Under the pieces are notes generated by a model. It had not been told where the DNA came from. It ran no database searches and was given only the letters and a program-made list of their open reading frames with translations. Made by a program: the position numbers and the translations under genes. A stretch of 60,452 nt of DNA, the filler included. It is 3 parts of 3 records of this genome, joined end to end, with 100 filler letters (N's around TTAATTAATTAA, not from the genome) between each part and the next. Parts side by side here need not be neighbours in the genome. Positions count along the whole stretch, not along the records: positions 40,600 to 60,452 come from SRR20825006_1558; 2 more parts are not named here. The stretch is one strand, 5' to 3'. Numbering within the stretch: the stretch's first letter is position 1; each line of letters opens with the position of its first letter. Below, in pieces: positions 27,894 through 60,452 of this stretch.

Positions 27894-27993
27894 NNNNNNN
27901 NNNNNNNNNNNNNNNNNNNNNNNNNNNNNNNNNNNNNTTAATTAATTAANNNNNNNNNNNNNNNNNNNNNNNNNNNNNNNNNNNNNNNNNNNN
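27894..27993. other. artificial contig linker
   Basis: 44 N + TTAATTAATTAA (stops in all six frames) + 44 N. Confidence 0.99.
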
Positions 27994-40499: not shown

Positions 40500-40599
40500 N
40501 NNNNNNNNNNNNNNNNNNNNNNNNNNNNNNNNNNNNNNNNNNNTTAATTAATTAANNNNNNNNNNNNNNNNNNNNNNNNNNNNNNNNNNNNNNNNNNNN
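40500..40599. other. artificial contig linker
   Basis: 44 N + TTAATTAATTAA + 44 N. Confidence 0.99.
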
Positions 40600-41724: not shown

Positions 41725-41729
41725 TTCTA

Positions 41730-42118: not shown

Positions 42119-42124
42119 AAATAA

Positions 42125-43000: not shown

Positions 43001-43022
43001 AAATTATTTTATTTCATATCTT

Positions 43023-43052
43023 AAAGCCTTGCAATTGCTGCAAGGCTTTTTT
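43023..43052 (+). terminator. intrinsic terminator
   Basis: AAAGCCTTGCA-attgc-TGCAAGGCTTTTTT. Confidence 0.85.
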
Positions 43053-43177
43053 GTTGGTACAATCGCAGCGCTTAATATCCAGTTATGATGGCTATTGCGA
43101 TGCCCAGAGATAGTTTATCTATTGTATACGACCTAAACAATCCATACGTTAGCTTTGTAAACCCAATCTAAGCACTT

Positions 43178-43600
43178 ATGAAAAACATATTATCAGCTTT
43201 GTTCTTATTTACTTTATTCTCTTGTGGGGGAAGCAACCAACTCGTTAAGAACCCGCCTTTTGAGATTGAAAAAACGACTCGTAAATCTGGGGTTAAGGGC
43301 CTCGAAAACATTCGTTTTGTAGCCAAAAATATTCCCCAAGAGGTAAGCTTTGAATCTTTATATTTTCAGCAGAAAAAATCTAAAGTACTTTGGGAAGATA
43401 CCAATCTGTATTATGCCACTTTCTCGACAGTGCCTGCGAATAGTAAAGACCGCGTATTATCAGTAAATCGTGAAGATGAAGCGAAAAATCCTTTACCGCA
43501 AATTCCGGTTGAAGTGCCTTTTAAAATCAAAGCAAATGAAGCCTTATTAGAATACAAAGTAGGAGATAAGACCTTTTATACCGTTCTGGAGGTTAAATAG
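43178..43600 (+). CDS. hypothetical lipoprotein
   Basis: Lipobox LFSC; TAGCTTTG -7 element at 43150-43157. Confidence 0.75.
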   Translation: MKNILSALFLFTLFSCGGSNQLVKNPPFEIEKTTRKSGVKGLENIRFVAKNIPQEVSFESLYFQQKKSKVLWEDTNLYYATFSTVPANSKDRVLSVNREDEAKNPLPQIPVEVPFKIKANEALLEYKVGDKTFYTVLEVK

Positions 43601-43672
43601 GAGAAAGCGTTGCAGTCTCGGTTTTGGATTGCTTCCGAATAGTTATTTTTAAATGGAAAAAATCGAACTTCT

Positions 43673-45109: not shown

Positions 45110-45141
45110 AAATTCCACAGCGTGGAACTTAAAAGCACATT

Positions 45142-45576
45142 ATGCAAATAAACATTATCAATACATCTAATCACGCATTACCGCATTACGAAACCGAAGC
45201 TTCTGCAGGAATGGATCTTCGCGCAGCGCTTGATGCACCGGTGACCTTAAAACCTTTAGAACGCGCGATCATCAAAACAGGTTTGTTCATTGAACTCCCT
45301 GTGGGTATCGAGGCCCAGGTGCGCCCTAGAAGTGGTCTGGCAGCAAAAAAAGGAATTACCGTACTCAACGCTCCGGGAACCATTGATGCAGATTATCGTG
45401 GGGAAATCGGCGTGATACTAGTCAACCTATCTAACGAAGATTTTACGATCGAAAATGGCGAGCGCATTGCCCAACTAGTCATCGCAAAGCACGAGCGTGC
45501 TGATTGGAATGAAGTTGAAGTTTTAAGTGAAACAGCTCGCGGCGCTGGAGGTTTCGGAAGTACCGGAACCAAATAA
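45142..45576 (+). CDS. dut: dUTP diphosphatase
   Basis: [22 protein letters not shown] and [10 protein letters not shown]. Confidence 0.98.
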
Positions 45577-45669
45577 TGAGCTAATGATTTAAGAGGCCTT
45601 CACCAAAAACACGCCTTTTAAATTTTAATAACGGTTCTTTTTGCAGAGAACAACCAGAAATTTAAACGT

Positions 45670-46680
45670 ATGAAAATCATAGTCCCTATGGCAGGTCGTG
45701 GATCACGACTACGGCCGCATACCTTAACCATTCCAAAACCGTTAATCCCTATTGCGGGCAAACCTATTGTGCAACGTTTGGTAGAAGATATCGCAAGCGT
45801 TCTGGATGAGAAAATCGAAGAAGTAGCGTATGTGATCGCAGAGGATTTTGGTAAAGAAACCGAAGAAAACCTCAAACAAATCGCACAAAATTTAGGCGCA
45901 AAAGGAAGCATTTATTATCAAGATAAACCCTTAGGAACCGGGCACGCCATTATGTGCGCGCAACAATCTTTGAGCGGCCCGTGTGTAATTGCTTATGCAG
46001 ATACACTCTTTAGAGCAGATTTTACGTTAGATAAAGAAGCAGACAGTGTGATCTGGGTAAAACAGGTTAAAAATCCTGAAGCCTATGGCGTGGTTTCGCT
46101 AAATGAAAACAATGAAATCGAAGGTCTGGTAGAAAAACCCAAGGATTTTGTTTCAGATCTTGCGGTTATAGGCATTTACTATTTTAAAGATGGAGCGGTG
46201 CTCAAAGGCGAATTGCAGGCGGTTTTAGATGCTAAATTGATGCACGGTGGCGAGTATCAGATTAACGACGGGATCAAGCAAATGCAGGCGAAAGGTTACA
46301 CGTTTAAACCCGGAAAAATCGATGAGTGGATGGACTGTGGCAATAAAAACGTAACTGTAGAGACCAACGGAAGAATGCTTCAGTTTTTGCACAAAGAAGG
46401 TGCGTACCTAGTTGCTTCTTCAGCTCAACTAGAGAATGCATCGGTGATTCCGCCATGTTATATTGGTGAAAATGCGGTGATAAAAGATGCTACCATTGGC
46501 CCAAATGTCTCTGTAGGTGAGGGCACGGTTATTAAAAACAGCACCATTGAAGAAAGTTTGATTCAGAATTATAGCCAGGTTACTAATGCGCAGTTAAAAA
46601 ATGCTATGATTGGTAATTATGCTAAATTCGATGGTAACTTTACGGCAATCAGTATAGGAGACTATTCTGAGTTGGTTTAA
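45670..46680 (+). CDS. sugar-phosphate nucleotidyltransferase with C-terminal hexapeptide repeats
   Basis: MAGRGSRLRP...PKPL, PLGTGHA, VEKP and WMDCG. Confidence 0.92.
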   Translation: MKIIVPMAGRGSRLRPHTLTIPKPLIPIAGKPIVQRLVEDIASVLDEKIEEVAYVIAEDFGKETEENLKQIAQNLGAKGSIYYQDKPLGTGHAIMCAQQSLSGPCVIAYADTLFRADFTLDKEADSVIWVKQVKNPEAYGVVSLNENNEIEGLVEKPKDFVSDLAVIGIYYFKDGAVLKGELQAVLDAKLMHGGEYQINDGIKQMQAKGYTFKPGKIDEWMDCGNKNVTVETNGRMLQFLHKEGAYLVASSAQLENASVIPPCYIGENAVIKDATIGPNVSVGEGTVIKNSTIEESLIQNYSQVTNAQLKNAMIGNYAKFDGNFTAISIGDYSELV

Positions 46681-46689
46681 AAGTTTAAA

Positions 46690-48036
46690 ATGAAAAGATT
46701 CGCGTTTTTAGGAATGTTGCTTTTGTTTTCGCCTTTGGCGGAAGCCCAAGAGCCTACACCTTTGCAAGACGTGAATGTAGATCAGTTGGAAGATGTTACA
46801 GACGCTTTTCAAGAATCTTTTTTTGAAGCGCTGAAGCAAAAAGGAATCGAGAACTATGATCGCGCGATCGTAGCATTAGATAAATGCATCGCATTACGGC
46901 CGCAAGAGTCTATTTTATATTTTGAAAAAGGTAAAAATGAGGCGGCTTTGGGCAACACTCAAGAAGCCGAAAACAATTACCTGAAAGCACTTCAGCTTAA
47001 ACCCAATCAGCGCGATATAATGGAGGCTTTATACGAAGTGTACTATGCGCGTCAGGATTTTGATCAAGCAATAGATCTCGTACAAGACCTGGCTAAGTTT
47101 GACATTAAGTATAAAGAAGATCTAGCGCGTATTTATGTGCGTAAGGGAGCCTTTAAAGAAGCCTTAGACGTTTTAGATGAGCTGGATGAAGCGTTGGGTA
47201 AAGATGCTTATCGCAATCAGATCAGAGAACAGGCTATGGCATTGAGCGGAGGGGATTTTAAAGAAAAAATGCTTCTAGACGCGATTGCTCAAAATCCGCA
47301 AAACGAAAAAAATTACCTGAATCTTATTTATATCTATAGTGAACAAGGTAAAACACAACAGGCTTATGCTACTGCACAAAAGTTACTTAAAGTAAACCCA
47401 AAGGCAGATGAAGTGCATTTGGCGCTGTACAAATTTCATTTAGAACAGAATGATGTAGCGCGCGCTTTTCAATCTTTAGAACGCGTGATGAAAAGTTCAA
47501 AAGTTGAAGCCAAAGCAAAACATAGCGTCCTTAATGATTTTTTAATCTTTGTAGATCGCAATCCGGAGTTTGAACCAGAATTAGAACAAGCGATCGCTTT
47601 ATTTTCTGAGGAAGAGGCGACTGATGTTAATGAAGAATTAGGAGCTTATTATCTAAAGAATAATGATAAAACAAAGGCGTTAGCTTATTATGAGGCTGCT
47701 TATAAAAAAAATCCTGACGATGTAAATGTGCTGCGTAATTTGGTACTCTTGCAATTACAGGCACAGCAGTTTGAGAATGCTGCTGCGTTAAGTGAAGAAG
47801 CGCTGGCATTTTATCCGGCGCAGGCGGTATTTTATTTAGTTTATGGGGTAGCGCAAAACGCTTTAGGAAAAGCGCAGAACGCGGTAGATTATTTAGAGAT
47901 GGGGATTGATTATGTAATTGAAAATCCTAAAATGCAAGCCGATTTTTATAGCGAACTTGCGCGCGCTTACGAAACGCTGGGAAATGCCGAAAAGGCAGCA
48001 GCGTATCGCAAGCGATTAACAAATTTGACACAATAG
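46690..48036 (+). CDS. exported TPR protein
   Basis: Signal peptide followed by multiple TPR units. Confidence 0.88.
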   Translation: MKRFAFLGMLLLFSPLAEAQEPTPLQDVNVDQLEDVTDAFQESFFEALKQKGIENYDRAIVALDKCIALRPQESILYFEKGKNEAALGNTQEAENNYLKALQLKPNQRDIMEALYEVYYARQDFDQAIDLVQDLAKFDIKYKEDLARIYVRKGAFKEALDVLDELDEALGKDAYRNQIREQAMALSGGDFKEKMLLDAIAQNPQNEKNYLNLIYIYSEQGKTQQAYATAQKLLKVNPKADEVHLALYKFHLEQNDVARAFQSLERVMKSSKVEAKAKHSVLNDFLIFVDRNPEFEPELEQAIALFSEEEATDVNEELGAYYLKNNDKTKALAYYEAAYKKNPDDVNVLRNLVLLQLQAQQFENAAALSEEALAFYPAQAVFYLVYGVAQNALGKAQNAVDYLEMGIDYVIENPKMQADFYSELARAYETLGNAEKAAAYRKRLTNLTQ

Positions 48037-48037
48037 T

Positions 48038-48805
48038 ATGCAATTGATATATCGAGGAATTTTAGTGCTAACGCTTATAGGTCTTGTGGGATGTAAGGCG
48101 ACCAAAAATGCAGCATCTACAGAAGATTTAGCTTCGGCAAAAATCATCAAAGCGCATTATGACACGCACCCTGAATTTGAGACGTTGGCAGCACGGCTTA
48201 AAATTCGTTACTCAGATCCTGAGACCACACAAAACGTAACGGTAAGTCTAAGAATGAAACAAGGAGAAACCATCTGGATGAGTGCTTCGGTGTTAGGAAT
48301 TTCTTTAGCGAAAGCAATGATCACTAAAGACCGCGTTCAATTCTACGAGAAAATTGACGGAACTTACTTTGACGGCGACTTTGAATTATTAAGTGATTTA
48401 CTAGGCACAGAGCTAGATTATGACCAAGTGGAAGCTTTACTGCTGGGGCAACCTATTTACGATTTAAGAAGTGGGGGCTTTAGCGCCGGCGCAACCTCCT
48501 CGCGCTATTTGGTAGCACCGCGCAAGCAATCTGCCTTGTTTGATCTGTTTTTCTTTCTTAACAGCGGGGCGTTTACGCTGCAAGAACAGCGACTGGCGCA
48601 GCGGGAAGCTCAGCGCGACCTCACTATTTCCTACGGAGATTATATCGAGGAGCAACAAGGCTTTTTTCCTTCAGAAATCCACGTGAAAGCACAAGAGGCA
48701 GAAAAAACCACAACTATTGACATCACATACCGCGGTTTAGATTTTAATTCTGAAGTGAGTTTTCCGTTTAATATTCCCGGTGGTTTAAAAGAAATCCAAC
48801 TTTAA
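48038..48805 (+). CDS. DUF4292 family lipoprotein
   Basis: Lipobox LVGC; IWMS...YFDGDF...FPFNIP; lies upstream of the envC-like gene. Confidence 0.8.
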   Translation: MQLIYRGILVLTLIGLVGCKATKNAASTEDLASAKIIKAHYDTHPEFETLAARLKIRYSDPETTQNVTVSLRMKQGETIWMSASVLGISLAKAMITKDRVQFYEKIDGTYFDGDFELLSDLLGTELDYDQVEALLLGQPIYDLRSGGFSAGATSSRYLVAPRKQSALFDLFFFLNSGAFTLQEQRLAQREAQRDLTISYGDYIEEQQGFFPSEIHVKAQEAEKTTTIDITYRGLDFNSEVSFPFNIPGGLKEIQL

Positions 48806-50058
48806 TGCAGTTGAAGCTGAAATTGAAATACACCCTATTTTTTGGACTTTTGCTAAGTTCGTTACTCGCTGTTGCCCAAAATGACAAACAAGCTGAGCTG
48901 GAGCGCCAGCGTCGCGCGCTGATGAGTCAGATTGAAGAGTTGAGCAAGTTGCGACAAAGCAATAAGAAGAAGGAAATCAACGTGCTGAGCCAGGTTGAAG
49001 ATTTAGCTTCAAAAATAAAAACCCGGGAAAACCTCATAAGGGTAACCAACAGTCAGGCGAATTTGCTCACCCAAAAGATCAATCAAAACATCAATAAAAT
49101 CAGTGAGCTGAGAGCCGAATTATCAAAGCTTAAAGAAGATTACGCGGCGATGGTGCAAAAGTCCTACAAGAGTAAAAGCAGTCAGAGCCGTATTATGTTT
49201 TTGCTGTCTTCAGAGAGTTTTTTACAAGCCTATAAGCGGGTGCAGTATATGAAGCAATACAGCAATTACCGCAAAAAACAAGGCGATCAGATTAAAGAGC
49301 GTACGACACTTTTACAAGAAACAAATACCAAGCTCATAGATCAAAAAGAAGAAAAACAGCAATTGATCGCTCAAAACAAAAGAGAGCAAGAAAAGCTTGA
49401 AGATGAGAAAAAACAGCAAGATGCGTTGATCGCGACCATACGTGAGAAAGAATCTTCTTATGCTGCTCAGATCAATAAAAAACAAGCCGAAGCCAATCGC
49501 ATTGACCGGGAGATAGACCGATTGATTCGGGAAGCGATCGCTGCTTCTAAAAAGGAAAGTGGCGCTACCACTACTTCTGAAACAGAGATCAAAAAGGGAG
49601 CGATGCCTACTTTTGCGTTGACTCCGGCGGCAAAAGCACTTGCTAATGATTTTGCCTCTAATAAAGGGAGAATGGACTGGCCTGTGGAACGAGGCAGGGT
49701 ATATAAAAAATTCGGAACCTCAAAGCATCCTACGCTTCCTAATATTACCACATACAATAGTGGTGTCGAGATTGAGACTGCACCCGGTAGTGTTGCGCGT
49801 GCAGCATTTAAAGGCACTGTACAACAAGTGCAGTTAATACGAGGCGGCGGCTATACGATACTCATTCGTCACGGTAATTACCTCACGGTGTATCAAAATT
49901 TAAAAAACCTTAAGGTTAAGGTGAACGATCAAGTTTCAACAAAACAAGCCTTAGGAGAAATTGCCGAGAACTCATTCAACGGAAAAACCATTTTGAAATT
50001 TCTAGTCTATAAAGATTCAGAGCGCTTGAATCCTGAAGACTGGATTTACAATATGTAG
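48805..50058 (+). CDS. envC: murein hydrolase activator EnvC family
   Basis: Long coiled coil plus degenerate M23 domain (KGRMDWPV, IRHGNYLTVYQNL). Confidence 0.88.
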   Translation: MQLKLKLKYTLFFGLLLSSLLAVAQNDKQAELERQRRALMSQIEELSKLRQSNKKKEINVLSQVEDLASKIKTRENLIRVTNSQANLLTQKINQNINKISELRAELSKLKEDYAAMVQKSYKSKSSQSRIMFLLSSESFLQAYKRVQYMKQYSNYRKKQGDQIKERTTLLQETNTKLIDQKEEKQQLIAQNKREQEKLEDEKKQQDALIATIREKESSYAAQINKKQAEANRIDREIDRLIREAIAASKKESGATTTSETEIKKGAMPTFALTPAAKALANDFASNKGRMDWPVERGRVYKKFGTSKHPTLPNITTYNSGVEIETAPGSVARAAFKGTVQQVQLIRGGGYTILIRHGNYLTVYQNLKNLKVKVNDQVSTKQALGEIAENSFNGKTILKFLVYKDSERLNPEDWIYNM

Positions 50059-50126
50059 TAGAGTATAGCTCGTAAAATCAGATTGTTGTATTTTAGAAGT
50101 GCACAAATTCTTCAAACTGATTTTAT

Positions 50127-51545
50127 ATGAAAAAAACTACCTTCCTTTTTACGTGTTTACTCTCCACGATTCTTTTCGCCCAAAACAAACAAGAGCAAGT
50201 TTTAGAACAGCTTGATCAAAACACCCAAGCCTACGGCGAGATCGCCCATAAAATATGGTCTTTTGCCGAAATGGGATATCAAGAAGAACAAAGCGTTGCT
50301 TTACTTCAAAAAACTTTAAAAGAAGAAGATTTTACCATCGAAGCCGGCGTGGCAGGAATGCCTACGGCTTTTATCGCGAGTTATGGTTCGGGAAAGCCGA
50401 TCATTGCGGTTTTAGGTGAGTACGATGCATTGCCCGGATTATCGCAAAAAGCCGTTGCGCATAAAGAATCTAATGGCGGTGTAGCCGGGCACGCGTGCGG
50501 GCATCATTTGTTTGGTACAGCATCTGCGGCCGCGGCGATTTCAATAAAACGCTATCTGGAAAATACAGGAACATCAGGAACCATTCGTTTTTACGGTTGC
50601 CCTGCCGAAGAAGGAGGTTCGGGTAAGGTGTATTTAACGCGCGCCGGACTTTTTGATGATGTGGATGCGGTGATCAATTGGCATCCGGGAAATTCCAACG
50701 GCGCTGATCCCGGAGCAGCATTAGCAAACAAATCGGCTAAATTTAGATTTCACGGAATTGCCGCACACGCTGCCGGTGCTCCTGAGAAAGGGCGCTCAGC
50801 ACTTGATGGTGTAGAGGCGATGAATTATATGGTCAATATGATGCGCGAGCATGTACCCGAAGATACCCGTATTCATTATGTGATCACTGATGGCGGAAAG
50901 GCGCCAAATGTTGTGCCTGATTTTGCTGAGGTGTATTATTATGCGCGCCACACGACCCGAGATGTGGTGATCGATGTGTTTGACCGAGTGGTTAAAGCAG
51001 CTGAAGGAGCAGCACTAGGAACCGGTACAACAATGGATTATGAAATGATTGGCGGTACGCACGAATTGCTACCCAATCTTACGCTACAGAAACTTATGTA
51101 TGACAACTTGAAAGAGGTTGGTGGGTATACCTATACGCCCGAAGAACGTGAGTTTGCCGAAGAAATTGCCAAAAGCTTGAATACAGACCTTGATGTAAAA
51201 AATGTAGAAGGTATAAGTGAGTACAATCCTATTCCTGAAGCGGGTGGCTCTACTGATGTGGGTGACGTGAGTTTTACCGTACCTACCGTTGGCCTGTATA
51301 CGGCTACTTGGGTACCGGGAACACCTGCACACAGTTGGCAAGCAGTGGCAGCGGGTGGAACCAGTATAGGCACCAAAGGAATGATGGTCGCGGCAAAAAC
51401 CATGGCTAAAACCGGTATGGACTTATTTGACCAACCCGAAATTCTTAAAGCAGCTTGGACTGAATTTGAAGAAAAGCGTGGCGAAGATTTTGAGTATATC
51501 CCTTTGTTGGGAGATCGAGAACCGGCACTAGATTATAGAAACTAG
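50127..51545 (+). CDS. M20 amidohydrolase (AbgB-like) with signal peptide
   Basis: GEYDALPG, GHACGH, PAEEGG, GSTDVGDVS and PAHSWQ. Confidence 0.9.
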   Translation: MKKTTFLFTCLLSTILFAQNKQEQVLEQLDQNTQAYGEIAHKIWSFAEMGYQEEQSVALLQKTLKEEDFTIEAGVAGMPTAFIASYGSGKPIIAVLGEYDALPGLSQKAVAHKESNGGVAGHACGHHLFGTASAAAAISIKRYLENTGTSGTIRFYGCPAEEGGSGKVYLTRAGLFDDVDAVINWHPGNSNGADPGAALANKSAKFRFHGIAAHAAGAPEKGRSALDGVEAMNYMVNMMREHVPEDTRIHYVITDGGKAPNVVPDFAEVYYYARHTTRDVVIDVFDRVVKAAEGAALGTGTTMDYEMIGGTHELLPNLTLQKLMYDNLKEVGGYTYTPEEREFAEEIAKSLNTDLDVKNVEGISEYNPIPEAGGSTDVGDVSFTVPTVGLYTATWVPGTPAHSWQAVAAGGTSIGTKGMMVAAKTMAKTGMDLFDQPEILKAAWTEFEEKRGEDFEYIPLLGDREPALDYRN

Positions 51546-51560
51546 AATACCTACTAAACA

Positions 51561-51588
51561 AAAAGGGGAAGCAGCTGCTTCCCCTTTT
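51561..51588. terminator. bidirectional intrinsic terminator
   Basis: Perfect palindrome AAAAGGGGAAGCAGCTGCTTCCCCTTTT between convergent genes. Confidence 0.85.
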
Positions 51589-51607
51589 ATTTTATGATTG
51601 AATTGGC

Positions 51608-52117
51608 TTACTCAAAAAGCGCTTTTAATTCAGTAGCTTCTTTAGCTTCCATCTTTCCGGCGAGAACAAGACTGAGTTGTTTTCTGCGTAAAGCGGCATC
51701 ATAACGCTGGATTTCTTTTTCGGTTTCCGGTTTAATTTGAGGGATAGGTACCGGCATTCCGGTTTCATCTACGGCAACAAAGGTGTAAATCGCATCGTTT
51801 GCTTTTGATTTAAGGCCGTTTTCACGGTCTTCTACCCATACATCAATTACAACTTCCATAGAGGTCTTAAAAGCTCTGGAAATCGAAGCTTCTACAGTCA
51901 CCACACTCCCCAACGGAATCGCTTTATTAAACGCCACGTGATTTACCGATGCAGTAACTACAATTCGGCGTGAATGTCTTCTGGCGGTAATACTCGCAAC
52001 ACGATCCATACGTGCAAGAAGTTCGCCTCCAAACATATTGTTTAAAGGGTTCGTTTCATTGGGCAAAACCAGATCGGTTTGCGTGGTACGCGATTCAGAA
52101 GGCGTTTTTGCTTTCAT
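51608..52117 (-). CDS. acyl-CoA thioesterase (hotdog fold)
   Basis: PNETNPLNNMFGGELL, VVTASV, TSMEV and TFVAVD. Confidence 0.93.
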   Translation of the reverse strand: MKAKTPSESRTTQTDLVLPNETNPLNNMFGGELLARMDRVASITARRHSRRIVVTASVNHVAFNKAIPLGSVVTVEASISRAFKTSMEVVIDVWVEDRENGLKSKANDAIYTFVAVDETGMPVPIPQIKPETEKEIQRYDAALRRKQLSLVLAGKMEAKEATELKALFE

Positions 52118-52163
52118 AGTTTGATTTTCGGCAAAAATAGGAAGAAAAAGCCGGTAGAAAATT

Positions 52164-52191
52164 AAAAAAGCCTCCTAGTTTGGAGGCTTTT
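52164..52191 (-). terminator. intrinsic terminator after SPOR gene
   Basis: AAAAAAGCCTCC-tagttt-GGAGGCTTTT. Confidence 0.75.
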
Positions 52192-52216
52192 GCATATTAA
52201 TCTTAAAAAGAGATCT

Positions 52217-53149
52217 TTAATTCAATTCCTGGATCAGCATCCAAGCATTGGGATTATCTGTGTTACGTATGTTGCGTAATTCTTTTAAAGCTTCGGTGCG
52301 ATCTGTGTAACTTCCGTAAACCACCTGATGCAAGCCGTATTTGTTTTCACCTAAAGTGCGTGCTTTATAACCGGCTTCGCGCAGTTGATTTACACGTGTT
52401 TCAGCATTTTCAGGAATTCTAAAAGCACCTGCTACGATGTGAAAATTTCCTTTTGGTTTAAAGGCATTCAAAGTAACGGCAGGCAACGGATTATCAATTG
52501 TGAAGGTCGCGTGCTGAATAGTATTTTCGATCTGACTTTCTGCCTTTTGTTTTTCGGCAAAATTATGATCTGCAATATCCTTGAAATATAAAAAGCCTAA
52601 TGCTCCAGATAAACCTATGGTAAGCAATCCTACTGCGGCATACTTCATCCAGCCGTTTGAGCGGCGGGCAGGAGTGAGGTGTATAGGCGCTTTCTCTTCA
52701 ATAGCTTCGGCTTCTTGCGCTAATACTTCGCGTGTCACCGGTTGAGCGGTATACGAGGCAAGACCAAAAGCTTCGGTTAAATAATTGGTAGATTGCTCAG
52801 GCTCAAAACTCAAGTTTCCGGCTTCATTTTGAGACAAGGTACCAATTTTATCAAATACAAGCGTTTCTTCAGCATTCAATTTTTGCTGAACATTCACAGC
52901 GAATTCTTGCACTTTTAGTAATGCACTTTCATAGCTTAAATGCTCTGCCGAAGCGACATAATTAGCTAATAGTCCATCATTTTCTTTCAATTGTGCATTA
53001 AAAGAAATACGTTTTTTAGGTGGGAAAAAGGCCTGTGCGGTTTCGTCGTGATATGCAGAAACGCGGTGTGCTAAAAACGCTCCGAAGCCGGGAACGATCA
53101 CGCACTCGTATCTATAAAGTAAGTCGCTGATGTAATTTGAAAAATGCAT
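52217..53149 (-). CDS. HU-like (CCDC81-type) domain + TM + SPOR domain protein
   Basis: ECVIVPGFGAF...FFPP N-terminus and FHIVAGAF...AWML SPOR domain. Confidence 0.88.
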   Translation of the reverse strand: MHFSNYISDLLYRYECVIVPGFGAFLAHRVSAYHDETAQAFFPPKKRISFNAQLKENDGLLANYVASAEHLSYESALLKVQEFAVNVQQKLNAEETLVFDKIGTLSQNEAGNLSFEPEQSTNYLTEAFGLASYTAQPVTREVLAQEAEAIEEKAPIHLTPARRSNGWMKYAAVGLLTIGLSGALGFLYFKDIADHNFAEKQKAESQIENTIQHATFTIDNPLPAVTLNAFKPKGNFHIVAGAFRIPENAETRVNQLREAGYKARTLGENKYGLHQVVYGSYTDRTEALKELRNIRNTDNPNAWMLIQELN

Positions 53150-53244
53150 AAAGTAAAATTAAAAAAAAATGCTACCGCCTTTAGAAAGTTGTTCGTGATT
53201 TGTTAACAATTTTGCAATACCTTTATTAACAGCAATTTAAAATA

Positions 53245-54345
53245 ATGAAAGAAGACGAACTTCACGCATTTTTGACCTTACAGCGTATTCCTAATTTAGG
53301 AGACACATCGATCAAAAGACTTATTGCGCGATTTGAAACTGCACAACAAGTGCTAGATCAAAAGAAAGAAAGCCTTTTAAAACTAGACGGAATCGGCGCT
53401 TTTAAGTTGAAAGCTTTTTTTGAAAAGGAACACAGGCTTGCGGCAGAAGAAGAATTAAAATTCATTCAAGAGCATAACATTGATTACTGCAGTTATAAAG
53501 ATCAAAACTATCCTGAGCGATTAAAGCACTGCATCGACGGGCCAATTTTGCTTTTTAAACGCGGAAGTAAAGATTTTTCTCAGCAGCGAATAATCTCTAT
53601 TGTAGGAACGCGTAAAGTCACCAATCACGGAGTAGACTTTATAAAGCAGTTTGTAGAGGACCTTGCACCTTTAAATCCGCTTGTGGTTTCGGGGTTTGCT
53701 TACGGAGTAGATATTACTGCGCATCGCGCAGCGCTAGATCAAGGTTTAGATACGATTGCGGTGTTAGCCCACGGTTTGAACCAGATCTATCCTAAGGTTC
53801 ATGCTAAGTATGTAAAACTTGTTGAAGCGCAAGGCGCATTCATCACTGATTTTTGGAGTAGTGATGCGTTTGACCGAACGAACTTTTTACGTAGAAATCG
53901 CATCATTGCCGGGATGAGTGAAGCTACGGTAGTAATCGAAAGTGCCGAAAAAGGAGGCTCGCTCGTAACGGCAGATATCGCAAATTCTTACAACAGGGAT
54001 GTTTTTGCAGTCCCCGGAAGGCCCGGGGATGCACAAAGTTTGGGCTGTAATAATTTAATCAAAACTCAGAAAGCACAGTTGATCACCAGCGCAGCAGATT
54101 TAATTTATCTGCTCAATTGGCAAATAGAAGAGGAGCTCAAACCTGTGCAAAAGCAACTTTTTGTAGAACTCAATGCGGAAGAAAAAGTGATCTGCAATTT
54201 TTTATCAGACGTGGGCAAAGAGCAACTTGATTTGATCGCACTGCATTGCAAAATGCCCACGTTTAAAGTAGCCAGTATTCTACTTAATATGGAATTAAAA
54301 GGAGTAGTAAGACCCTTGCCCGGAAAACAGTTTGAACTGACTTAG
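53245..54345 (+). CDS. dprA: DNA processing protein DprA
   Basis: IVGTR, VSGFAYGVD, RRNRIIAG, GGSLVTA and VFAVPG. Confidence 0.96.
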   Translation: MKEDELHAFLTLQRIPNLGDTSIKRLIARFETAQQVLDQKKESLLKLDGIGAFKLKAFFEKEHRLAAEEELKFIQEHNIDYCSYKDQNYPERLKHCIDGPILLFKRGSKDFSQQRIISIVGTRKVTNHGVDFIKQFVEDLAPLNPLVVSGFAYGVDITAHRAALDQGLDTIAVLAHGLNQIYPKVHAKYVKLVEAQGAFITDFWSSDAFDRTNFLRRNRIIAGMSEATVVIESAEKGGSLVTADIANSYNRDVFAVPGRPGDAQSLGCNNLIKTQKAQLITSAADLIYLLNWQIEEELKPVQKQLFVELNAEEKVICNFLSDVGKEQLDLIALHCKMPTFKVASILLNMELKGVVRPLPGKQFELT

Positions 54346-55310
54346 TATCCTACTTTCTTACGTACGCGATCTAGAACTTCGTTTGCAATTACTCGAGCTT
54401 TTTCTGCTCCAACACTTAGTGCGGCATCCAATTCATCAAGATTGTCCATATAATGGTTGTACAACGCGCGCTCTTTTTCAAACTTGTTTAAGACAAGTTC
54501 GTATAAAGCTTTTTTAGCGTGACCGTATCCATAACCACCGGCTTCATAATTTATACGCATTTGAGCAACTTCATCTTTTGAAGCTAATAACTTATAAATG
54601 CCAAAAACATTACAAGTATCAGGATCTTTAGGATCTTCGAGCGGCGTGCTATCAGTTTCGATACTCATAATTTGTTTTTTCAATGCTTTGTCAGATTGAA
54701 AAATTATGATGGTGTTGCCTTTGCTCTTACTCATTTTGGCACCGTCGGTTCCCGGGATATACATCGTTTCCTCGTGAAGTTTCAGCTCAGGAATTACAAA
54801 AGTTTCACCCATTTGTGCGTGAAAACGTGAAGCGACATCGCGCGTCATCTCAAGGTGCTGAGATTGATCTTTACCTACCGGAACAATTTCGGCATCATAC
54901 AACAAGATATCAGCCGCCATAAGCATCGGGTAGGTAAAAAGTCCGGCATTTACATCTTCCAGTCTATCTGCTTTGTCTTTAAAACTATGTGCTAACGTTA
55001 AGCGCTGATACGGAAAAAAACAGCTTAAATACCAAGTAAGCTCTGTGGTTTGTGGGATATCGCTTTGGCGGTAGAAAACCGTTTTTTCAATATCAAGACC
55101 ACAAGCAAGCCATGTCGCGGCAGTAGAATAGGTGTTGTGTCTTAAGGTTTCGCCATTTTTAATCTGAGTAAGCGAGTGCATATCTGCGATGAATAAAAAG
55201 GATTCATTTTCAGGCTGATTAGCCATATTGATCGCAGGGATTATAGCTCCTAATAAGTTACCTAAATGTGGTGTTCCCGTACTTTGAACACCTGTTAAAA
55301 TTCGTGACAT
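54342..55310 (-). CDS. trpS: tryptophan--tRNA ligase
   Basis: HLGN, YPMLMAADIL, VPVGKDQ and KMSKS. Confidence 0.98.
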   Translation of the reverse strand: MSRILTGVQSTGTPHLGNLLGAIIPAINMANQPENESFLFIADMHSLTQIKNGETLRHNTYSTAATWLACGLDIEKTVFYRQSDIPQTTELTWYLSCFFPYQRLTLAHSFKDKADRLEDVNAGLFTYPMLMAADILLYDAEIVPVGKDQSQHLEMTRDVASRFHAQMGETFVIPELKLHEETMYIPGTDGAKMSKSKGNTIIIFQSDKALKKQIMSIETDSTPLEDPKDPDTCNVFGIYKLLASKDEVAQMRINYEAGGYGYGHAKKALYELVLNKFEKERALYNHYMDNLDELDAALSVGAEKARVIANEVLDRVRKKVGY

Positions 55311-55425
55311 GGTTCATTTAAATTTTGCGTAAAGTTACCCCTTTTCAAGTATTAACTCCTTTTAAAATGTCTATTTTTGAGACGTCGGTTTGTATCTGCA
55401 AGTCGGCAGAAATCCTATACTGTTG

Positions 55426-56181
55426 ATGTTAAGACTGCTTCAGAAATTACTGATTTTACTTTGGCGCATATGGTTCTATGTGCTCATCATAGTGCCCATT
55501 ATCATATTGTTGCCCTTCCTACTTATTTCGGTAGCAAAAGACTCCTGGTATCCTTACTTTTTTAAAATGGCTAGGTTGTGGGCGCGCATTATTTTATACG
55601 GAATGGGCTTTTGGCCAGAGGTTAAACGTCTTGAAAAAACAGAACAGGGTAAAAGCTATATGTATATCGCTAATCACACCTCAATGACAGATATAATGTT
55701 GATGCTGAGTAGTGTGCGTAACCCTTTTGTATTTGTTGGAAAACAAGAACTTGCAAAATTTCCACTGTTTGGATATTTCTACAAACAAACGTGTATTCTG
55801 GTAGACCGCGGGGATCCTAAAAGCAGAAGAGCGGTATTTGAAAGTGCCCAAAACAGACTCAACCAGGGGCTTAGTATTTGTATTTTTCCTGAAGGTGGCG
55901 TGCCCGATGACACCAGCATTGTGCTTGATACGTTTAAAGACGGAGCATTCAGGCTAGCGATAGATCACCAAGTACCTATTGTACCGATGGTGTTTTATGA
56001 TAACAAAAAGCGTTTTTCTTATGAATTTTTCACCGGTACACCGGGATTGATGCGCGTAAAAGTCTTGCCATTTATTCAAACCAAAGGCCTAAAAGCGATA
56101 GATCGAAAAACTGTAAAAGAGCAGGCTTTTAAAGCCATTCATGCCGAATTGCTAAAAGATCAAGCCTACGCGGAAACCTAA
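55426..56181 (+). CDS. plsC: 1-acyl-sn-glycerol-3-phosphate acyltransferase
   Basis: NHTSMTD, IFPEGG and FKDGAF; ATG 55426 downstream of TATTTTTG at 55372-55379. Confidence 0.9.
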   Translation: MLRLLQKLLILLWRIWFYVLIIVPIIILLPFLLISVAKDSWYPYFFKMARLWARIILYGMGFWPEVKRLEKTEQGKSYMYIANHTSMTDIMLMLSSVRNPFVFVGKQELAKFPLFGYFYKQTCILVDRGDPKSRRAVFESAQNRLNQGLSICIFPEGGVPDDTSIVLDTFKDGAFRLAIDHQVPIVPMVFYDNKKRFSYEFFTGTPGLMRVKVLPFIQTKGLKAIDRKTVKEQAFKAIHAELLKDQAYAET

Positions 56182-56214
56182 AAAAGTCGCCCTAACCACA
56201 AGGCGACTTTTTTT
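56180..56214. terminator. bidirectional intrinsic terminator
   Basis: AAAAAAGTCGCC...GGCGACTTTTTTT. Confidence 0.85.
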
Positions 56215-56385
56215 CATCATTGCATATGCAATAATTAACCTAACCAACTAAAAAACTAACCTAACTTCCTGTGCACTGTTAGTTGGCAGTACACAGTTTC
56301 TTTTAAAGTTTGAAGATTAAACCAAAGTCCGGCCGGTTGAAATACAGCCAAACTTTGGTTATCTCATCTTCCCCTTTCATATATT
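56180..56385 (-). ncRNA. candidate structured 3'-region RNA of the ECF operon
   Basis: Two hairpins whose C-A mismatches on + become G-U pairs on -; an 8-nt loop complementary to a downstream segment; GUUAG repeats; terminator. Confidence 0.55.
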
Positions 56386-57825
56386 TTAAAACCGAATGCT
56401 TAAACCGGTGTAAAGACCTAAATAATAGGGTCTGAAATCGCTCACCGATTTGGTATAGGCATTCAGTTGGTATTTAAACATAGGTTCCAGATTGAATTGA
56501 ATGTGAGGCGTGAATTTATAATCTAAGCCCAAACCAACGTTGGTACTGAAACTAGTATTATTAAGACTGTTTGACGACCCGATGCGTGAAACCAAATTAT
56601 TATTTTCTTCAAGTGAAATAGAATTGTCGTTTAAGAATAGGGTGCTAAAACCACCAATCACTTGAATACCGAATTTACGATTGAGCAAAGCATATTCTGC
56701 TTCAAAAGGAACCTCAATGTAGCCTAATTCTTGACGCAGAGCATTGTTTATACTCGTACCCGCAACTGAAGCATTACTCGCAAATTCTGCTGCTGAAGAA
56801 GCCAGACTTTTATTAGCATCTGCCACCTGAATCAACTGTGAATTTTGATTATAATCTATACTGCTAATAGATTGCCCCTGAATGCTGGGAGCAAAGTTTA
56901 CTTGTTCCGTACGGTAACCTAAATCAACTTTATTTACTCCGGAGCGCACCGTAAGCCTGTCGTTAATGGCATAACTTACTTGAACCCCATAGCTAAAATT
57001 CACATCGCCACTTTTCTTGTTATCGGCAAATTCTGCTGCGATCCCAGAGCCACCAAAACTGTTGTAATACACGGGAGCCACCATAGGCGTAATACCCCAG
57101 CGTGATGCATCTTGAGATGCTGTATTTGAAGTTTCAGTATCCGCTAGAGCTTCTTCCTCATTTTGCGCGTTTGCGATTTCTTCCAATGAGGGTAATTCAT
57201 CTGCCGCAGTATTTTCTTGGGATTCGTTTTCAGTGGCGGCTATAGCGGCTGTGTTCTGTTCTGTGCTTGCAGTATGGTCATCCTGTGTAGCATTTGCATC
57301 ATTGCCTTGGTCAGCGGTAGCAATACCTGTTGAAGCAGCAGTGCTACCTGATTTTTTCGACTCTGAATTATTTCGGTTTTGAGTTGTGTTTGATGCGTTA
57401 CTTTTTACTTGATTTGCTTCCGTGGCTGAAGTAGAAGCAACAGTAGTTGCTTTAGTACTTGGATTAGATTCAGCCTTCTTTTGAGAATTAGAATCTTCAG
57501 TGCTTTTTTCTTCGGAAGAAACCACGGCATTGTCCGCAGTTTGCTCAATAGTTTTAGGTGTGCGCTGGTCTTGCTCAGGCGTTTCAGTTTCCTCTAAAAC
57601 CACTTCAACATCTTGCGCATCTGATGTTGAGAATATAAGGTTACCGGCGAGAAGGATTAGGACTAAGACAGCTGCTGCGCCGCTCAATTGAAGCCATAGC
57701 GGGATAATTGCGCGTTTTTTCTGCTGCTTGTCTACAATGCCAGCCCAGACTTTGTCATCAGGCATTGCCTCAAAGTCTTTAAACTTTTCCTGAAACAGGC
57801 GGTCTATGTTTTTTTGCTCTTTCAC
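56386..57825 (-). CDS. putative dual-membrane-spanning anti-sigma factor (N-terminal sigma-binding segment, TM, disordered linker, C-terminal OM beta-barrel)
   Basis: IDRLFQEKF...PDDKVW, then TM, ~160-aa S/T/N/Q/E-rich linker and beta-strands ending YTGLSIRF; GTGA overlap with the ECF sigma gene. Confidence 0.8.
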   Translation of the reverse strand: MKEQKNIDRLFQEKFKDFEAMPDDKVWAGIVDKQQKKRAIIPLWLQLSGAAAVLVLILLAGNLIFSTSDAQDVEVVLEETETPEQDQRTPKTIEQTADNAVVSSEEKSTEDSNSQKKAESNPSTKATTVASTSATEANQVKSNASNTTQNRNNSESKKSGSTAASTGIATADQGNDANATQDDHTASTEQNTAAIAATENESQENTAADELPSLEEIANAQNEEEALADTETSNTASQDASRWGITPMVAPVYYNSFGGSGIAAEFADNKKSGDVNFSYGVQVSYAINDRLTVRSGVNKVDLGYRTEQVNFAPSIQGQSISSIDYNQNSQLIQVADANKSLASSAAEFASNASVAGTSINNALRQELGYIEVPFEAEYALLNRKFGIQVIGGFSTLFLNDNSISLEENNNLVSRIGSSNSLNNTSFSTNVGLGLDYKFTPHIQFNLEPMFKYQLNAYTKSVSDFRPYYLGLYTGLSIRF

Positions 57826-58370
57826 CGTGTTGAGGATTGTAGGGTTTCACTCTGCTGATAATTTTCAACTTTTTCTTTTAAAATCATTCGGGCACGCGCC
57901 AGATTAGATTTACTGGTTCCTTCGCTAATGCTTAGCATTTGCGCGATTTCTTTGTGCGGGTAACCGTCTAGAACATAAAGGTTAAACACCAGCCTATAGC
58001 GGTCTGGTAATTCTTGTATTATTTTTAAAAGAAATTGAAGCGAGATCTCATTGGTGTCAACAAGAACCTCTTCCTGCTCAATCTGTTCTTCATTTACAAG
58101 TTCAAACAAACTCTGTTTACGATACCGTTGCAAAGCGGTATTGATCACAATACGCTTTAACCATCCTTCAAAAGAGCCTTTGCCTTTGTACTGATGTACT
58201 TTTTTAAAAATGGTTAAAAAAGCATCCTGAAGGTTATCTTCAGCCTCCTCGTAATTACGAGAATACTTAAGGGAAACCCCAAAGAGCGTGCGAGCGTACA
58301 AAGTGTACAATTCGGCCTGCGCTTTGGGTTTTTCCTTAGTTAAACCTTTTAAGAGCTTTTCTAAACTCAC
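57822..58370 (-). CDS. ECF RNA polymerase sigma factor
   Basis: AEDNLQDAF, SFEGWLKRIVIN and LPDRYRLVFNL...EIAQML...GTSKSNLARAR. Confidence 0.96.
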   Translation of the reverse strand: MSLEKLLKGLTKEKPKAQAELYTLYARTLFGVSLKYSRNYEEAEDNLQDAFLTIFKKVHQYKGKGSFEGWLKRIVINTALQRYRKQSLFELVNEEQIEQEEVLVDTNEISLQFLLKIIQELPDRYRLVFNLYVLDGYPHKEIAQMLSISEGTSKSNLARARMILKEKVENYQQSETLQSSTR

Positions 58371-58387
58371 ATTGTTACGTGCTTAAA

Positions 58388-58804
58388 TTACGGTTGCTCT
58401 ACAGGAACTTCTTGAGTTTCATAAATAGGCTCACCATTTTCATCATCGCCTTTATACATTTTAAAGACGTAGGTGTAGCGGTAAATTACATCGAAATTTA
58501 AAAAAGTGGAAATCGTGTCGTTTGGTGTGTCTGTACACATATCACTTTCTAAAACCTGACTTATGGCATACACAAAACGGGTGCTGTCTTCTCTAGCGGC
58601 TTCAAAATTGTAAAACTCGTGGCACGTTGTAGGTAATACAAACGAAACCGGCAATTGATAGCGCTCGCCGTAGACAAAACTTTCTGGTAACTCATAATCT
58701 GCAATTGGGAGCGCTTCATAGCTCACCACTTGCCCTTCATCATCCAGTGAACAACTGGTTATTAAACCTAATAAACCAATTAATAAAAAAACCTTTTTCA
58801 TCAT
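58388..58804 (-). CDS. lipoprotein, first gene of the ECF operon
   Basis: Lipobox ITSC followed by acidic SLDDE; two further Cys. Confidence 0.8.
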   Translation of the reverse strand: MMKKVFLLIGLLGLITSCSLDDEGQVVSYEALPIADYELPESFVYGERYQLPVSFVLPTTCHEFYNFEAAREDSTRFVYAISQVLESDMCTDTPNDTISTFLNFDVIYRYTYVFKMYKGDDENGEPIYETQEVPVEQP

Positions 58805-58827
58805 TAAAATTATCTGCTTTTTGTAAG

Positions 58828-58854
58828 TAGATACTTTAAGATGAAAAAGGTTGC
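58828..58854 (-). promoter_or_regulatory. putative ECF-sigma promoter (autoregulatory)
   Basis: GCAACC-N14-GTATCTA, 23 nt upstream of the lipoprotein ATG. Confidence 0.7.
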
Positions 58855-58875
58855 GTAAGCCGTTTAAAAATTTTT

Positions 58876-59886
58876 CTAAGCTTCTTTAGCTATTTTAATG
58901 GCTTCTTTGATTTTAACTTCAAGTTCTTCTAGGAGATCAGGGTTGTCTTTTAAGATGGCTTTTACTGCATCACGTCCTTGTCCTAGTTTGGTATCTTGAT
59001 AACTAAACCAAGAACCGCTCTTTTTGATGATTTCATAATCAACACCAATATCAAGGATTTCACCAACTTTAGAAACGCCTTCGCCATACATTATATCAAA
59101 TTCTGCCTGACGGAACGGAGGCGCAACTTTATTTTTAACCACTTTTACACGGGTTTTGTTTCCTTGTACTTCGCCGTTAGAATCTTTGATCTGTGTAGAA
59201 CGACGAATATCAAGACGTACCGAAGCATAAAACTTAAGTGCATTACCACCGGTAGTTGTCTCTGGGTTACCAAACATCACCCCGATCTTCTCACGCAATT
59301 GGTTGATGAAGATAACAGTACAGTTGGTTTTGCTGATAGATCCCGTAAGTTTACGTAAGGCTTGAGACATCAAACGAGCATGTAATCCCATTTTAGAATC
59401 TCCCATTTCTCCTTCGATCTCACTCTTTGGAGTTAATGCAGCAACAGAGTCAACAACAATAATGTCAATAGCTCCGGAGCGAATTAAATTATCTGTAATT
59501 TCTAGTGCTTGTTCCCCATTATCCGGTTGTGAAATGATGAGGTTTTCTATATCTACACCAAGTTTTTCAGCATAAAAACGATCAAAGGCGTGCTCCGCAT
59601 CAATAAAGGCTGCAATACCACCTTTCTTTTGCGCTTCTGCAATAGCGTGTAAAGTCAAGGTTGTTTTACCTGAAGATTCAGGACCATAGATCTCGATGAT
59701 TCTACCTTTAGGCAAACCACCAACGCCTAATGCCATATCAAGACCAAGCGAACCTGTAGAAATAGATTCAACTTCAACGATCGCGTTATCACCCATCTTC
59801 ATTACTGTACCCTTTCCGTAGGTTTTATCCATTTTATCAAGGGTAAGCTTCAGGGCTTTTAATTTAGCTTCTTGTTCTTTGCTCAT
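58876..59886 (-). CDS. recA: recombinase RecA
   Basis: [15 protein letters not shown] and [17 protein letters not shown]; start at ATG 59886 (MSKEQ). Confidence 0.99.
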
Positions 59887-60014
59887 AGTTTTTGTCTTTG
59901 ACGCTGATTTTGAGTGCGTTTTTAAAGAATCACTACTAACTATAGATTCTTTATTCCACGCTGCTAAAGTACTATTTCTTTTAATGCACACCAATGAAAT
60001 CAATCCAAATTATT

Positions 60015-60077
60015 GGAAAAATTCCTATTTAATTGAAATTTTAAAGAGATTGAACACCTAGAGGCGGAATATTTCCG
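60015..60077. promoter_or_regulatory. two GGA-N5-TCC boxes (putative Bacteroidota SOS boxes)
   Basis: GGAAAAATTCC at 60015-60025 and CGGAATATTTCCG at 60065-60077, upstream of recA. Confidence 0.6.
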
Positions 60078-60100
60078 AATAAAATTTAACATCTACCAAA

Positions 60101-60127
60101 GCAACCTCTTGCGTAAGTATGTATCTA
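60101..60127 (+). promoter_or_regulatory. second copy of the putative ECF promoter
   Basis: GCAACC-N14-GTATCTA, same boxes and spacing as 58828-58854. Confidence 0.7.
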
Positions 60128-60132
60128 AATGT

Positions 60133-60325
60133 AAAACCTTATGTACTATGGTGCAGAAAGTTAAGCAAATACATTGCGTAAATAAGGGCTGCGTCGGCAT
60201 TCCTTATTTTTGCAATATAAGATTGGACGGCGGTTAGCGGTGTTATGTTGATGAAATCAAATAATATATAACCTGAATTAGCCGTTCAAGAAAAATGCCC
60301 CCGAGAAACTCGCGGGCATTTTTTT
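60133..60325 (+). ncRNA. candidate ECF-dependent small RNA
   Basis: Promoter, hairpins at 60173-60216 and 60223-60289 with G-U pairs on +, and a terminator; no ORF over 29 aa found. 5' end approximate. Confidence 0.6.
60291..60325 (+). terminator. intrinsic terminator
   Basis: AAAAATGCCC-c-CGAG-aaa-CTCG-c-GGGCATTTTTTT. Confidence 0.8.
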
Positions 60326-60429
60326 GTTTTGTAGTGAGACAAGTTTTAAAACACACGGAGCTATTCTTGCAGCTAATGACTTAAAAATGCTACTTTTGCG
60401 CCACTTTTAACCTTAAAATTAAGTATAGC

Positions 60430-60452
60430 ATGCAACTGTACAACAAATTAAG
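60430..60452 (+). CDS. start of next gene, possibly rhodanese-related tRNA hydroxylase (TrhO-like)
   Basis: Only MQLYNKL is visible; TACTTTTG -7 element at 60391-60398. Confidence 0.45.

Follow-up and report, generated by a model that had tools for sequence, protein, structure and literature searches.

A small-gene unit with an ECF-type promoter next to recA in Leeuwenhoekiella: a predicted 29-residue peptide whose last codons lie in a conserved RNA hairpin

Between recA and the rhodanese-like gene trhO of a Leeuwenhoekiella contig lies an unannotated unit of about 190 nt (positions 60133–60325), which raises the question of whether its product is a regulatory RNA or a protein. The window analysed here is a stretch of 60,452 nt, of which positions 40600–60452 (SRR20825006_1558) are 97% identical over their whole length to Leeuwenhoekiella palythoae DSM 19859 (genome G126); the recA–trhO spacer measures 544 nt. 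A preliminary description, made from the window's letters, had proposed a non-coding small RNA (sRNA) of the envelope-stress type, analogous to MicA and RybB, under a promoter for an extracytoplasmic function (ECF) sigma factor. Comparison with related genomes leads us to a different reading, to which we give a probability of roughly 0.6: the unit is part of the regulon under the adjacent ECF sigma, and its main product is a 29-residue cytoplasmic peptide.

The open reading frame (ORF) behind this reading (Table 1) begins at 60148 and, as already described, has 29 codons with three Cys; a 7-codon ORF at 60141 was likewise recovered. The 29-codon frame is free of stops in 18 of 18 aligned sequences of the genus, whereas stops interrupt the two other forward frames in 17 and 15 of these sequences and the three reverse frames in 14, 18 and 15, leaving each of the five open in 0–4 of 18. 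The ORF measures 29 codons in 17 of the 18 sequences, 28 in one and 30 in a second clade (clade 2), and all 13 metagenome loci carry an open ORF of 28–30 codons. Length changes between the ATG and the stop involve whole codons only, whereas the following hairpin 2 has many insertions and deletions that are not multiples of three. Pooled over seven phylogenetically independent pairs, synonymous divergence (pS) was 0.564 and non-synonymous divergence (pN) 0.193, a ratio of 0.34; the same computation in the shifted frames gave pN/pS values of 0.83 and 1.07. A single pair of loci (L145 and L152) differs by 16 synonymous and 10 non-synonymous changes. This pattern points to purifying selection on the ORF, in its own frame only.

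Residues M1, C22, D27, G28 and G29 are invariant in the 18 sequences. Clade 1 peptides read M(V/M)QK...(Y/H)C...C(N/S/T)x(R/K)(L/M)DGG and clade 2 peptides MKFL(R/K)(R/K)N(I/M)I...SC(R/K)VDGG. The predicted peptide has a conserved Cys, C22, and ends in an invariant ...(R/K)(L/V/M)DGG. The codons of this conserved tail vary synonymously (TTG/CTG/TTA, GAC/GAT, GGC/GGT/GGA, GGT/GGC and TGC/TGT), and some variants weaken RNA pairs while leaving the residue unchanged (TTG>TTA in G144, GGC>GGA in L152). The peptide matched no Pfam, NCBIfam or PDB profile. A profile search of 1.84 billion representative proteins returned four matches at E <= 0.001, three of which are unnamed members of a family of 29–30 residues; the fourth, a repetitive protein of 743 residues aligned only at profile positions 3–13, was regarded as spurious. 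The window's own peptide was not found in a collection of 15 billion proteins.

Could the ORF instead be an accident of hairpin sequence, in a purely non-coding RNA that acts in trans on envelope stress as MicA and RybB do? An ECF-type promoter, a strong structure, a terminator and the lack of an Rfam match are what one would expect of such an RNA, and hairpin 1, which falls inside the ORF, fits it as well: its closing stem is built from two palindromic TTGCA(A) contexts, so that two Cys codons coincide with the TTGCAA arms, and clade 1 keeps the hairpin while its sequence changes. Most of the 18 sequences are predicted to form a hairpin there (15 of them with z of about −2.4 to −6.6), with differing inner sequences and some compensatory changes in the closing stem. 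The corresponding region of clade 2, however, folds only weakly and non-homologously (z −1.2 to −2.5), so hairpin 1 appears to be clade-specific. The frame that stays open where five others do not, the whole-codon length changes, the low pN/pS in that frame only, and the synonymous changes that break RNA pairs but keep residues all speak against an accidental ORF. We therefore hold this explanation to be very improbable: with an ORF under apparent selection and hairpin 1 inside it, the unit is not a purely non-coding MicA/RybB analogue.

Structure is nevertheless a genuine property of the unit. The minimum free energy (MFE) fold of 60133–60325 reproduced hairpin 1, hairpin 2 with its inner stems (GGUUA/UAACC, GUGUUAU/AUAAUAU and UUGAU/AUCAA) and the terminator as previously described, at −65.7 kcal/mol on the plus strand (z = −6.21), and none of 200 shuffled sequences folded as well. 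For the minus strand the fold is weaker (−56.4 kcal/mol, z = −5.89), in line with the plus-strand preference noted before. The z-scores and the conservation across species indicate that the predicted structure exceeds chance.

Hairpin 2 and the terminator are the truly conserved RNA structures. Hairpin 2 combines a conserved basal helix with an asymmetric internal loop and an apical stem that varies; the ORF's last codons, UUGGACGGC, form the 5′ side of the helix. The hairpin folds alike in 18 of 18 genus sequences (z −1.8 to −7.1) and in four clade 2 sequences (z −4.2 to −4.9), and a covariance model of it (R1) scores 58–88 bits on all 18. Its covariation score was 0.209, compared with 0.120 for shuffled alignments (none of 500 reached the observed value) and at most 0.080 for slid partners; we weight the per-sequence folds above this score because a model-fitted alignment leans towards structure. 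All 22 distinct sequences carry a terminator with a stem of 14–17 pairs, differing inner stem sequences and a run of 5–8 U, although a simple terminator scan did not flag the one in the unit, whose stem has an internal mismatch. The preliminary description had opposed conservation of the peptide to conservation of the structure; we find both, since the ORF is kept in the 18 species sequences and the 13 metagenome loci alike, and hairpin 2 and the terminator are conserved as well.

The unit may thus also act as an RNA, and the 3′ strand of hairpin 2 is where such a function would be sought. All 18 sequences have identical TGAATTAGCC and TTC segments, the base G151 is nearly invariant (A in genome G132), and GAATTAGCCGTTC recurs in genome G158, which was found by the covariance model rather than by pattern. 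A dual-function RNA would account for this, if the peptide is made and the RNA also base-pairs in trans through the invariant 3′ strand UGAAUUAGCCGUUCA, masked by the last codons and exposed by the ribosome. The invariance includes a 7-nt UGAAUUA loop that is unpaired in clade 1 MFE folds, the segment is retained in G158, hairpin 2 covaries, and sRNAs usually have a hairpin and then a terminator at their 3′ end. Yet the 3′ strand pairs with the coding strand in two registers, GGACGGC/GCCGUUC and GGYUAR/UUAGCC, the latter read from the sequences and also appearing in clade 2 MFE folds, where the UGAAUUA "loop" is paired. Pairing in two registers with a strand locked by coding could keep TGAATTAGCCGTTCA nearly invariant with no trans target involved, although such a target may be compatible with the same pairing. 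The 3′ domain showed no specific complementarity to the leader of the sigma operon, the only target tried (mean z −0.2 over 17 species). On balance, we consider a dual-function RNA rather unlikely, and take the 3′ hairpin of the peptide gene to be an element of its mRNA that acts in stability, in termination context or in controlling how translation ends. The hairpin would then be strictly conserved because it pairs with a strand that coding constrains as well; what is unusual about the unit is that the two constraints, coding and structural, coincide at the end of the ORF.

We then considered how the unit is controlled. Upstream of the ORF, GCAACC is invariant in the 18 aligned sequences, with a nearly invariant (T/C)ATCT(A) 15 nt downstream, and the same motif precedes the ORF in all 13 metagenome loci. 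It also precedes the adjacent operon for a lipoprotein, an ECF sigma and a putative anti-sigma in 24 of 24 genomes, in all of which the operon adjoins recA. The window has two matches to the motif, at the unit and at the sigma operon, against 0.15 expected; 3 of 100 shuffled sequences reach two. Genome-wide, L. palythoae DSM 19859 has 13 matches against six for a reversed control, seven of them inside long ORFs; the other six are intergenic, lying upstream of the sigma operon, of four more lipoprotein genes and of the 29-codon ORF, and all six have T-rich bases after the −35 element in common and an ATG 5–31 nt past the −10 element. At 21 nt, the ATG of the unit lies within the range of the lipoprotein genes. 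With a stricter pattern, for which the controls gave no match, two matches were obtained in G158, four in G145 and two in G135; the two in G158 are the sigma operon and the small-gene unit. Because the unit and the sigma's own operon have this motif in common, we conclude that the adjacent ECF sigma probably controls the unit as part of its regulon, as the preliminary description had linked the two, and that the predicted regulon consists of lipoproteins and the 29-residue gene. A scan for the sigma-70 consensus gave two matches against 2.4 expected, both on the minus strand, and was uninformative. The unit is also self-contained, as proposed, with its own ECF-type promoter and intrinsic terminator.

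Table 1 Features of the small-gene unit and its surroundings (positions in the window).
Feature	Coordinates	Strand	Details
Small ORF, 29 codons + TAG, MVQKVKQIHCVNKGCVGIPYFCNIRLDGG	60148–60237	+	Three Cys; open frame, pN/pS, invariant residues
Hairpin 1	60173–60192 with 60197–60216	+	18 pairs, 2 G-U; within ORF codons 9–23
Hairpin 2	60223–60289	+	Basal helix UUGGACGGC/GCCGUUCAA, 60223–60231 with 60281–60289
Nearly invariant 3′ strand TGAATTAGCCGTTCA	60274–60288	+	TTAGCC part pairs alternatively with GGTTAG (last Gly codon + stop)
Intrinsic terminator, bidirectional type	60290–60325	+	Stem-loop 60290–60324, A-run before, U-run after
ECF-type promoter of the unit	60101–60127	+	−35 GCAACC 60101–60106, 15-nt spacer, −10 TATCTA 60122–60127
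Predicted transcription start	60133–60136	+	From the usual distance of 6–8 nt past the −10 element
Promoter of the sigma operon	58829–58854	−	Same motif and spacing; presumed autoregulated
Operon: lipoprotein / ECF sigma / putative anti-sigma	56386–58804	−	58388–58804 / 57822–58370 / 56386–57825
trhO-like rhodanese gene, own promoter and start	60391–60452	+	−7 box TACTTTTG 60391–60398, ATG 60431; outside the unit

We compared the unit with assembled contigs from sequencing runs. Nineteen listed runs from 15 studies contain the stretch or part of it, 13 of them at least half of the sampled words; six are RNA libraries, with 0.08–0.21 of the sampled words, and four of these (X14, X15, X16 and X17) were compared with the stretch. 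A 232-nt contig of X16 spans exactly 60138–60369, a contig of X15 spans 60165–60296, and one of X14 runs from 60196 to beyond 60452, bridging the unit and trhO, whereas X17 covers only positions from 60364 onward. The unit is therefore present in RNA-library contigs of three studies, covering the transcript that had been postulated. Relative to the window, the contigs carry three variants that keep their pairs on the plus strand (60192 C>T, C-G to U-G; 60242 G>A, G-U to A-U; 60302 C>T, C-G to U-G), two of which would become A-C on the minus strand, and a fourth (60219 A>C) that falls in a linker. The X16 contig begins close to the predicted transcription start, although contigs cannot prove a start. 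Positions 59796–60137 are without RNA-contig cover; since contigs cannot show absence, this was not used as evidence. The X15 contig has adapter-like loose ends on both sides, whose orientation would suit a plus-strand RNA had the library been dUTP-stranded; this conditional reading was not counted.

Several points weigh against a peptide gene in the regulon of the adjacent sigma. Residues 11–21 of the peptide are very variable, and in clade 1 they seem to be shaped more by the RNA hairpin than by the peptide. The invariant UGAAUUA internal loop, which the main helix does not need, hints at a function at the RNA level. L. palythoae may hold other ECF sigmas of similar promoter specificity. Assembled contigs show neither strand, ends nor level, and DNA carry-over is possible; moreover, two of the contigs extend past the terminator, one of them into trhO. 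Finally, any function assigned to the peptide is a guess, because it belongs to no known family or fold.

The bridging contig bears on another explanation, in which the nascent chain of 29–30 residues acts in cis as an arrest or leader peptide: stalling of the ribosome at ...RLDGG-stop would keep hairpin 2 open and control the fate of the transcript or read-through to trhO. The exit tunnel usually holds 30–40 residues, in which case the chain would not yet have left it, and the stop and last codons of the ORF do lie inside a conserved helix. We know of no stalling at an (R/K)(L/V/M)DGG motif, which is not RAPP-like, and inspection revealed no alternative antiterminator pairing. An invariant C-terminal core beside the stop with a variable region before it would suit an arrest peptide, as comparison with the described examples shows (PMC12992588, in part). 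The N-terminus MKFLRRNIIL of clade 2 is kept through many synonymous changes, however, which suggests a folded or binding peptide. As for trhO, the preliminary description had argued that the unit is not its leader, and the comparison agrees: the block around the −7 box TACTTTTG and the start (about 60391–60452) alone matches in 86 of 101 genomes of the genus of G001, a genome matching another contig of the window, and these genomes are without the unit. The distance from unit to trhO ranges from about 65 to 740 nt across species, and G136 (L098) and G132 (L099) have a convergent VOC/glyoxalase-like gene of 125–158 residues between the terminator and trhO. Since the trhO promoter is kept without the unit, at a variable distance and in two genomes behind an intervening gene, the unit is unlikely to be an attenuator of trhO, and we regard a cis-acting arrest peptide as quite doubtful.

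For the peptide gene itself, the following sequence of events can be proposed. Release of the sigma by the anti-sigma would allow RNA polymerase to start at the GCAACC-N15-TATCTA promoter, at about 60133–60136. A leader of roughly 13 nt would be followed by translation of the ORF. As the last four codons and the stop sit in the basal helix of the 3′ hairpin, the terminating ribosome would have to open this helix, and the intrinsic terminator would end the RNA at about 60325. That the peptide then acts in or on the same envelope-signalling pathway is our guess. A bolder version makes the unit a translation-gated riboregulator: the ...RLDGG-stop peptide, still in the exit tunnel, would make the ribosome pause at termination on hairpin 2's basal helix, so that translation and nascent-chain sensing together mask or free UGAAUUAGCCGUUCA for other RNAs or proteins. 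We rate this as speculative and improbable; if true, a sensor ORF of 29 codons would link an ECF envelope signal with a cytoplasmic cue.

The distribution of the unit is narrow. All 23 genomes of the genus of L. palythoae match part of the spacer, and BLAST places 60210–60329 between recA and trhO in 17 of them. The other six had no covariance-model match at the locus, nor genome-wide at E <= 1, while three positive-control genomes matched. These six form one clade (support 99/97) in a recA tree, a single-gene tree with midpoint rooting, and one loss therefore suffices. Among 151 genomes sampled evenly from the family, covariance-model matches occurred only in G126 and G158, in the latter of which recA and trhO flank the same set of promoter, ORF, hairpin and terminator; a second match in G158 (23 bits, E = 0.145 genome-wide) was treated as chance. 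The 13 loci from a pattern scan of metagenomes all have recA upstream, and the sigma gene is present in the 10 that reach far enough. The unit is single-copy in the genomes checked. In G138 and G141, where the unit is absent, the spacers measure 1.4 kb without long ORFs.

The composition of the window matters for such comparisons. Linkers of the form N44-TTAATTAATTAA-N44 at 27894–27993 and 40500–40599 show that it consists of three contigs placed end to end. The first is 99–100% identical to G001 over positions 1–27884, the middle one matches neither G001 nor G126, and G001 is of a different genus from the third; the last 20 kb of the window are only 67–77% identical to it. The source assembly thus combines DNA of different organisms, and genomes ranked as relatives of the window can belong to the wrong genus. 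The first comparisons were empty for this reason, as they drew on relatives of G001 and on its genus: 60133–60325 had matches in 0 of the 101 genomes of that genus, and of 61 relatives of G001 six gave short matches of 22–43 nt; the covariance model backed none of the seven loci L001–L007 (best E = 0.64). In that genus recA and trhO are also divergent neighbours, with a spacer of about 264–290 nt in 13 of the 14 loci readable in window orientation. The G001-like contig contains, in addition, a full-length 6S-Flavo RNA (RF01685, 102.6 bits) at 6803–6912 on the plus strand.

Around the unit, we identified two GGAA-N3-TTCC palindromes between recA and the ECF promoter, GGAAAAATTCC (60015–60025) and GGAATATTTCC (60066–60076). 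Both are kept in most of the 18 aligned spacers, and they may be operators that serve either recA (SOS-type) or the small gene. Within the 3′ arm of hairpin 1, at 60205–60212, TATTTTTG resembles a −7 box of the Bacteroidetes type. It was considered as the promoter of a shorter RNA of about 100 nt and rejected, as it occurs only in the window and G126.

In the neighbouring operon, the sigma is matched above cut-off by Pfam Sigma70_r2/r4_2 and by NCBIfam TIGR02937, the model of the ECF superfamily. The putative anti-sigma is a membrane protein of 479 residues with a C-terminal domain resembling an outer-membrane-protein beta-barrel (OMP_b-brl_2 match), and profile searches gave no match to an anti-sigma family. 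Downstream of its gene, at 56186–56261 on the minus strand, three copies of GGTTAG within 70 nt are followed by a terminator, AAAAAAAGTCGCC...GGCGACTTTTTT. The link that the preliminary description drew from this 56.2-kb element to the unit through a common GGUUAG did not hold: the hexamer is at chance level, 19 being expected in the window and eight present, and the element has its three on the opposite strand. The element is unrelated to the unit, and covariance model R1 had no match at 56186–56261.

The intergenic motif matches L107, L112, L116 and L117 of G126 and L160 of G135 precede small lipoprotein genes (signal peptide and Cys) encoding 113–397 residues. A further strict match, L166 of G145, stands before a hydrophobic ORF of 37 codons, MSIFFIILGTLLIINLLLFQFSS..., which may encode a second sigma-dependent small membrane protein.

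ECF sigmas are very numerous in Bacteroidota and their outputs mostly unknown, and marine flavobacteria have hardly been explored for small proteins and sRNAs. Here, a conserved sigma/anti-sigma module is associated with a very small predicted regulon and with a small gene that annotation has missed; since the strict motif occurs in G158 at the sigma operon and the small gene only, this tiny gene may be a principal output of the pathway. As the unit is short, its promoter is defined and its host is a type strain that can be cultured and is non-pathogenic, the roles of peptide and RNA are separable by start-codon and synonymous-recoding mutants. It also makes a cautionary case, in which a convincing "sRNA" with promoter, two hairpins and terminator came to look like a coding gene once relatives were compared.

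How does the unit compare with known systems? Across the region every Rfam family stays below its gathering score; at E <= 10 there were terminator-level matches only (best 20.9 bits against a cut-off of 50), MicA and RybB not among them, and the Thr, Phe and Trp leaders, at 15–19 bits against cut-offs of 41–55, covered the terminator only. We found no description of the unit in the literature searched, whose supplementary tables might list unnamed transcripts. For F. psychrophilum, the passages considered from its transcriptome describe sRNAs, Rfp18 among them, and an ECF-type motif whose −10 box is CGT, and contain nothing resembling the unit (PMC9723704).

To the SigmaE-dependent sRNAs MicA, RybB and MicL of enterobacteria and to Fusobacterium FoxI and FoxJ, the latter as far as the excerpts of their reports go (PMC11005410, PMC9546586), the unit is alike in being a short, terminator-ended RNA with an ECF-sigma promoter and a small member of the sigma's regulon outside its operon. 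Motif comparison suggests that it has a stress-sigma promoter in common with its sigma, as MicA/RybB-type sRNAs have, but it differs from them in lacking an Rfam sequence or structure match, in its apparently selected 29-codon ORF and in belonging to a different phylum. This phylum is not known to use Hfq.

TnaC, SecM and the RAPP-type peptides ApdA and ApdP offer a second likeness, a very short ORF with an invariant core at the stop and adjoining RNA structure; such arrest peptides combine an invariant C-terminal core with a variable body (PMC12992588, from the portion considered). The core of the unit, (R/K)(L/V/M)DGG, is not RAPP- or RGPP-like by the motif definition given there, and the unit has no regulated downstream cistron that lacks a promoter of its own. 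Leader-peptide attenuators of the trp, thr and phe type differ in the same respect, trhO having its own conserved promoter.

The guide RNAs (gRNAs) of the dCas12f–sigmaE systems of Bacteroidetes, including L. palythoae, are likewise small RNAs tied to ECF sigmas, in the same species; according to the sections considered, they lie directly downstream of dcas12f and next to rpoE, measure 85–105 nt, carry a 3′ guide and act without promoter motifs (PMC13472631). The unit differs from what these sections describe in having −35 and −10 elements in common with the sigma/anti-sigma operon and in its predicted peptide. Its neighbours are recA and trhO and not dcas12f, for which the rest of the contig was not screened.

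Dual-function sRNAs such as SgrS/SgrT, SR1/SR1P and RNAIII/hld unite a small ORF and structured non-coding parts in one short RNA. The unit resembles them in combining a small ORF with conserved structured non-coding parts; its evidence backs the coding half, and a base-pairing role is hypothetical. It departs from them in its arrangement, for here the end of the ORF itself is one half of the conserved helix.

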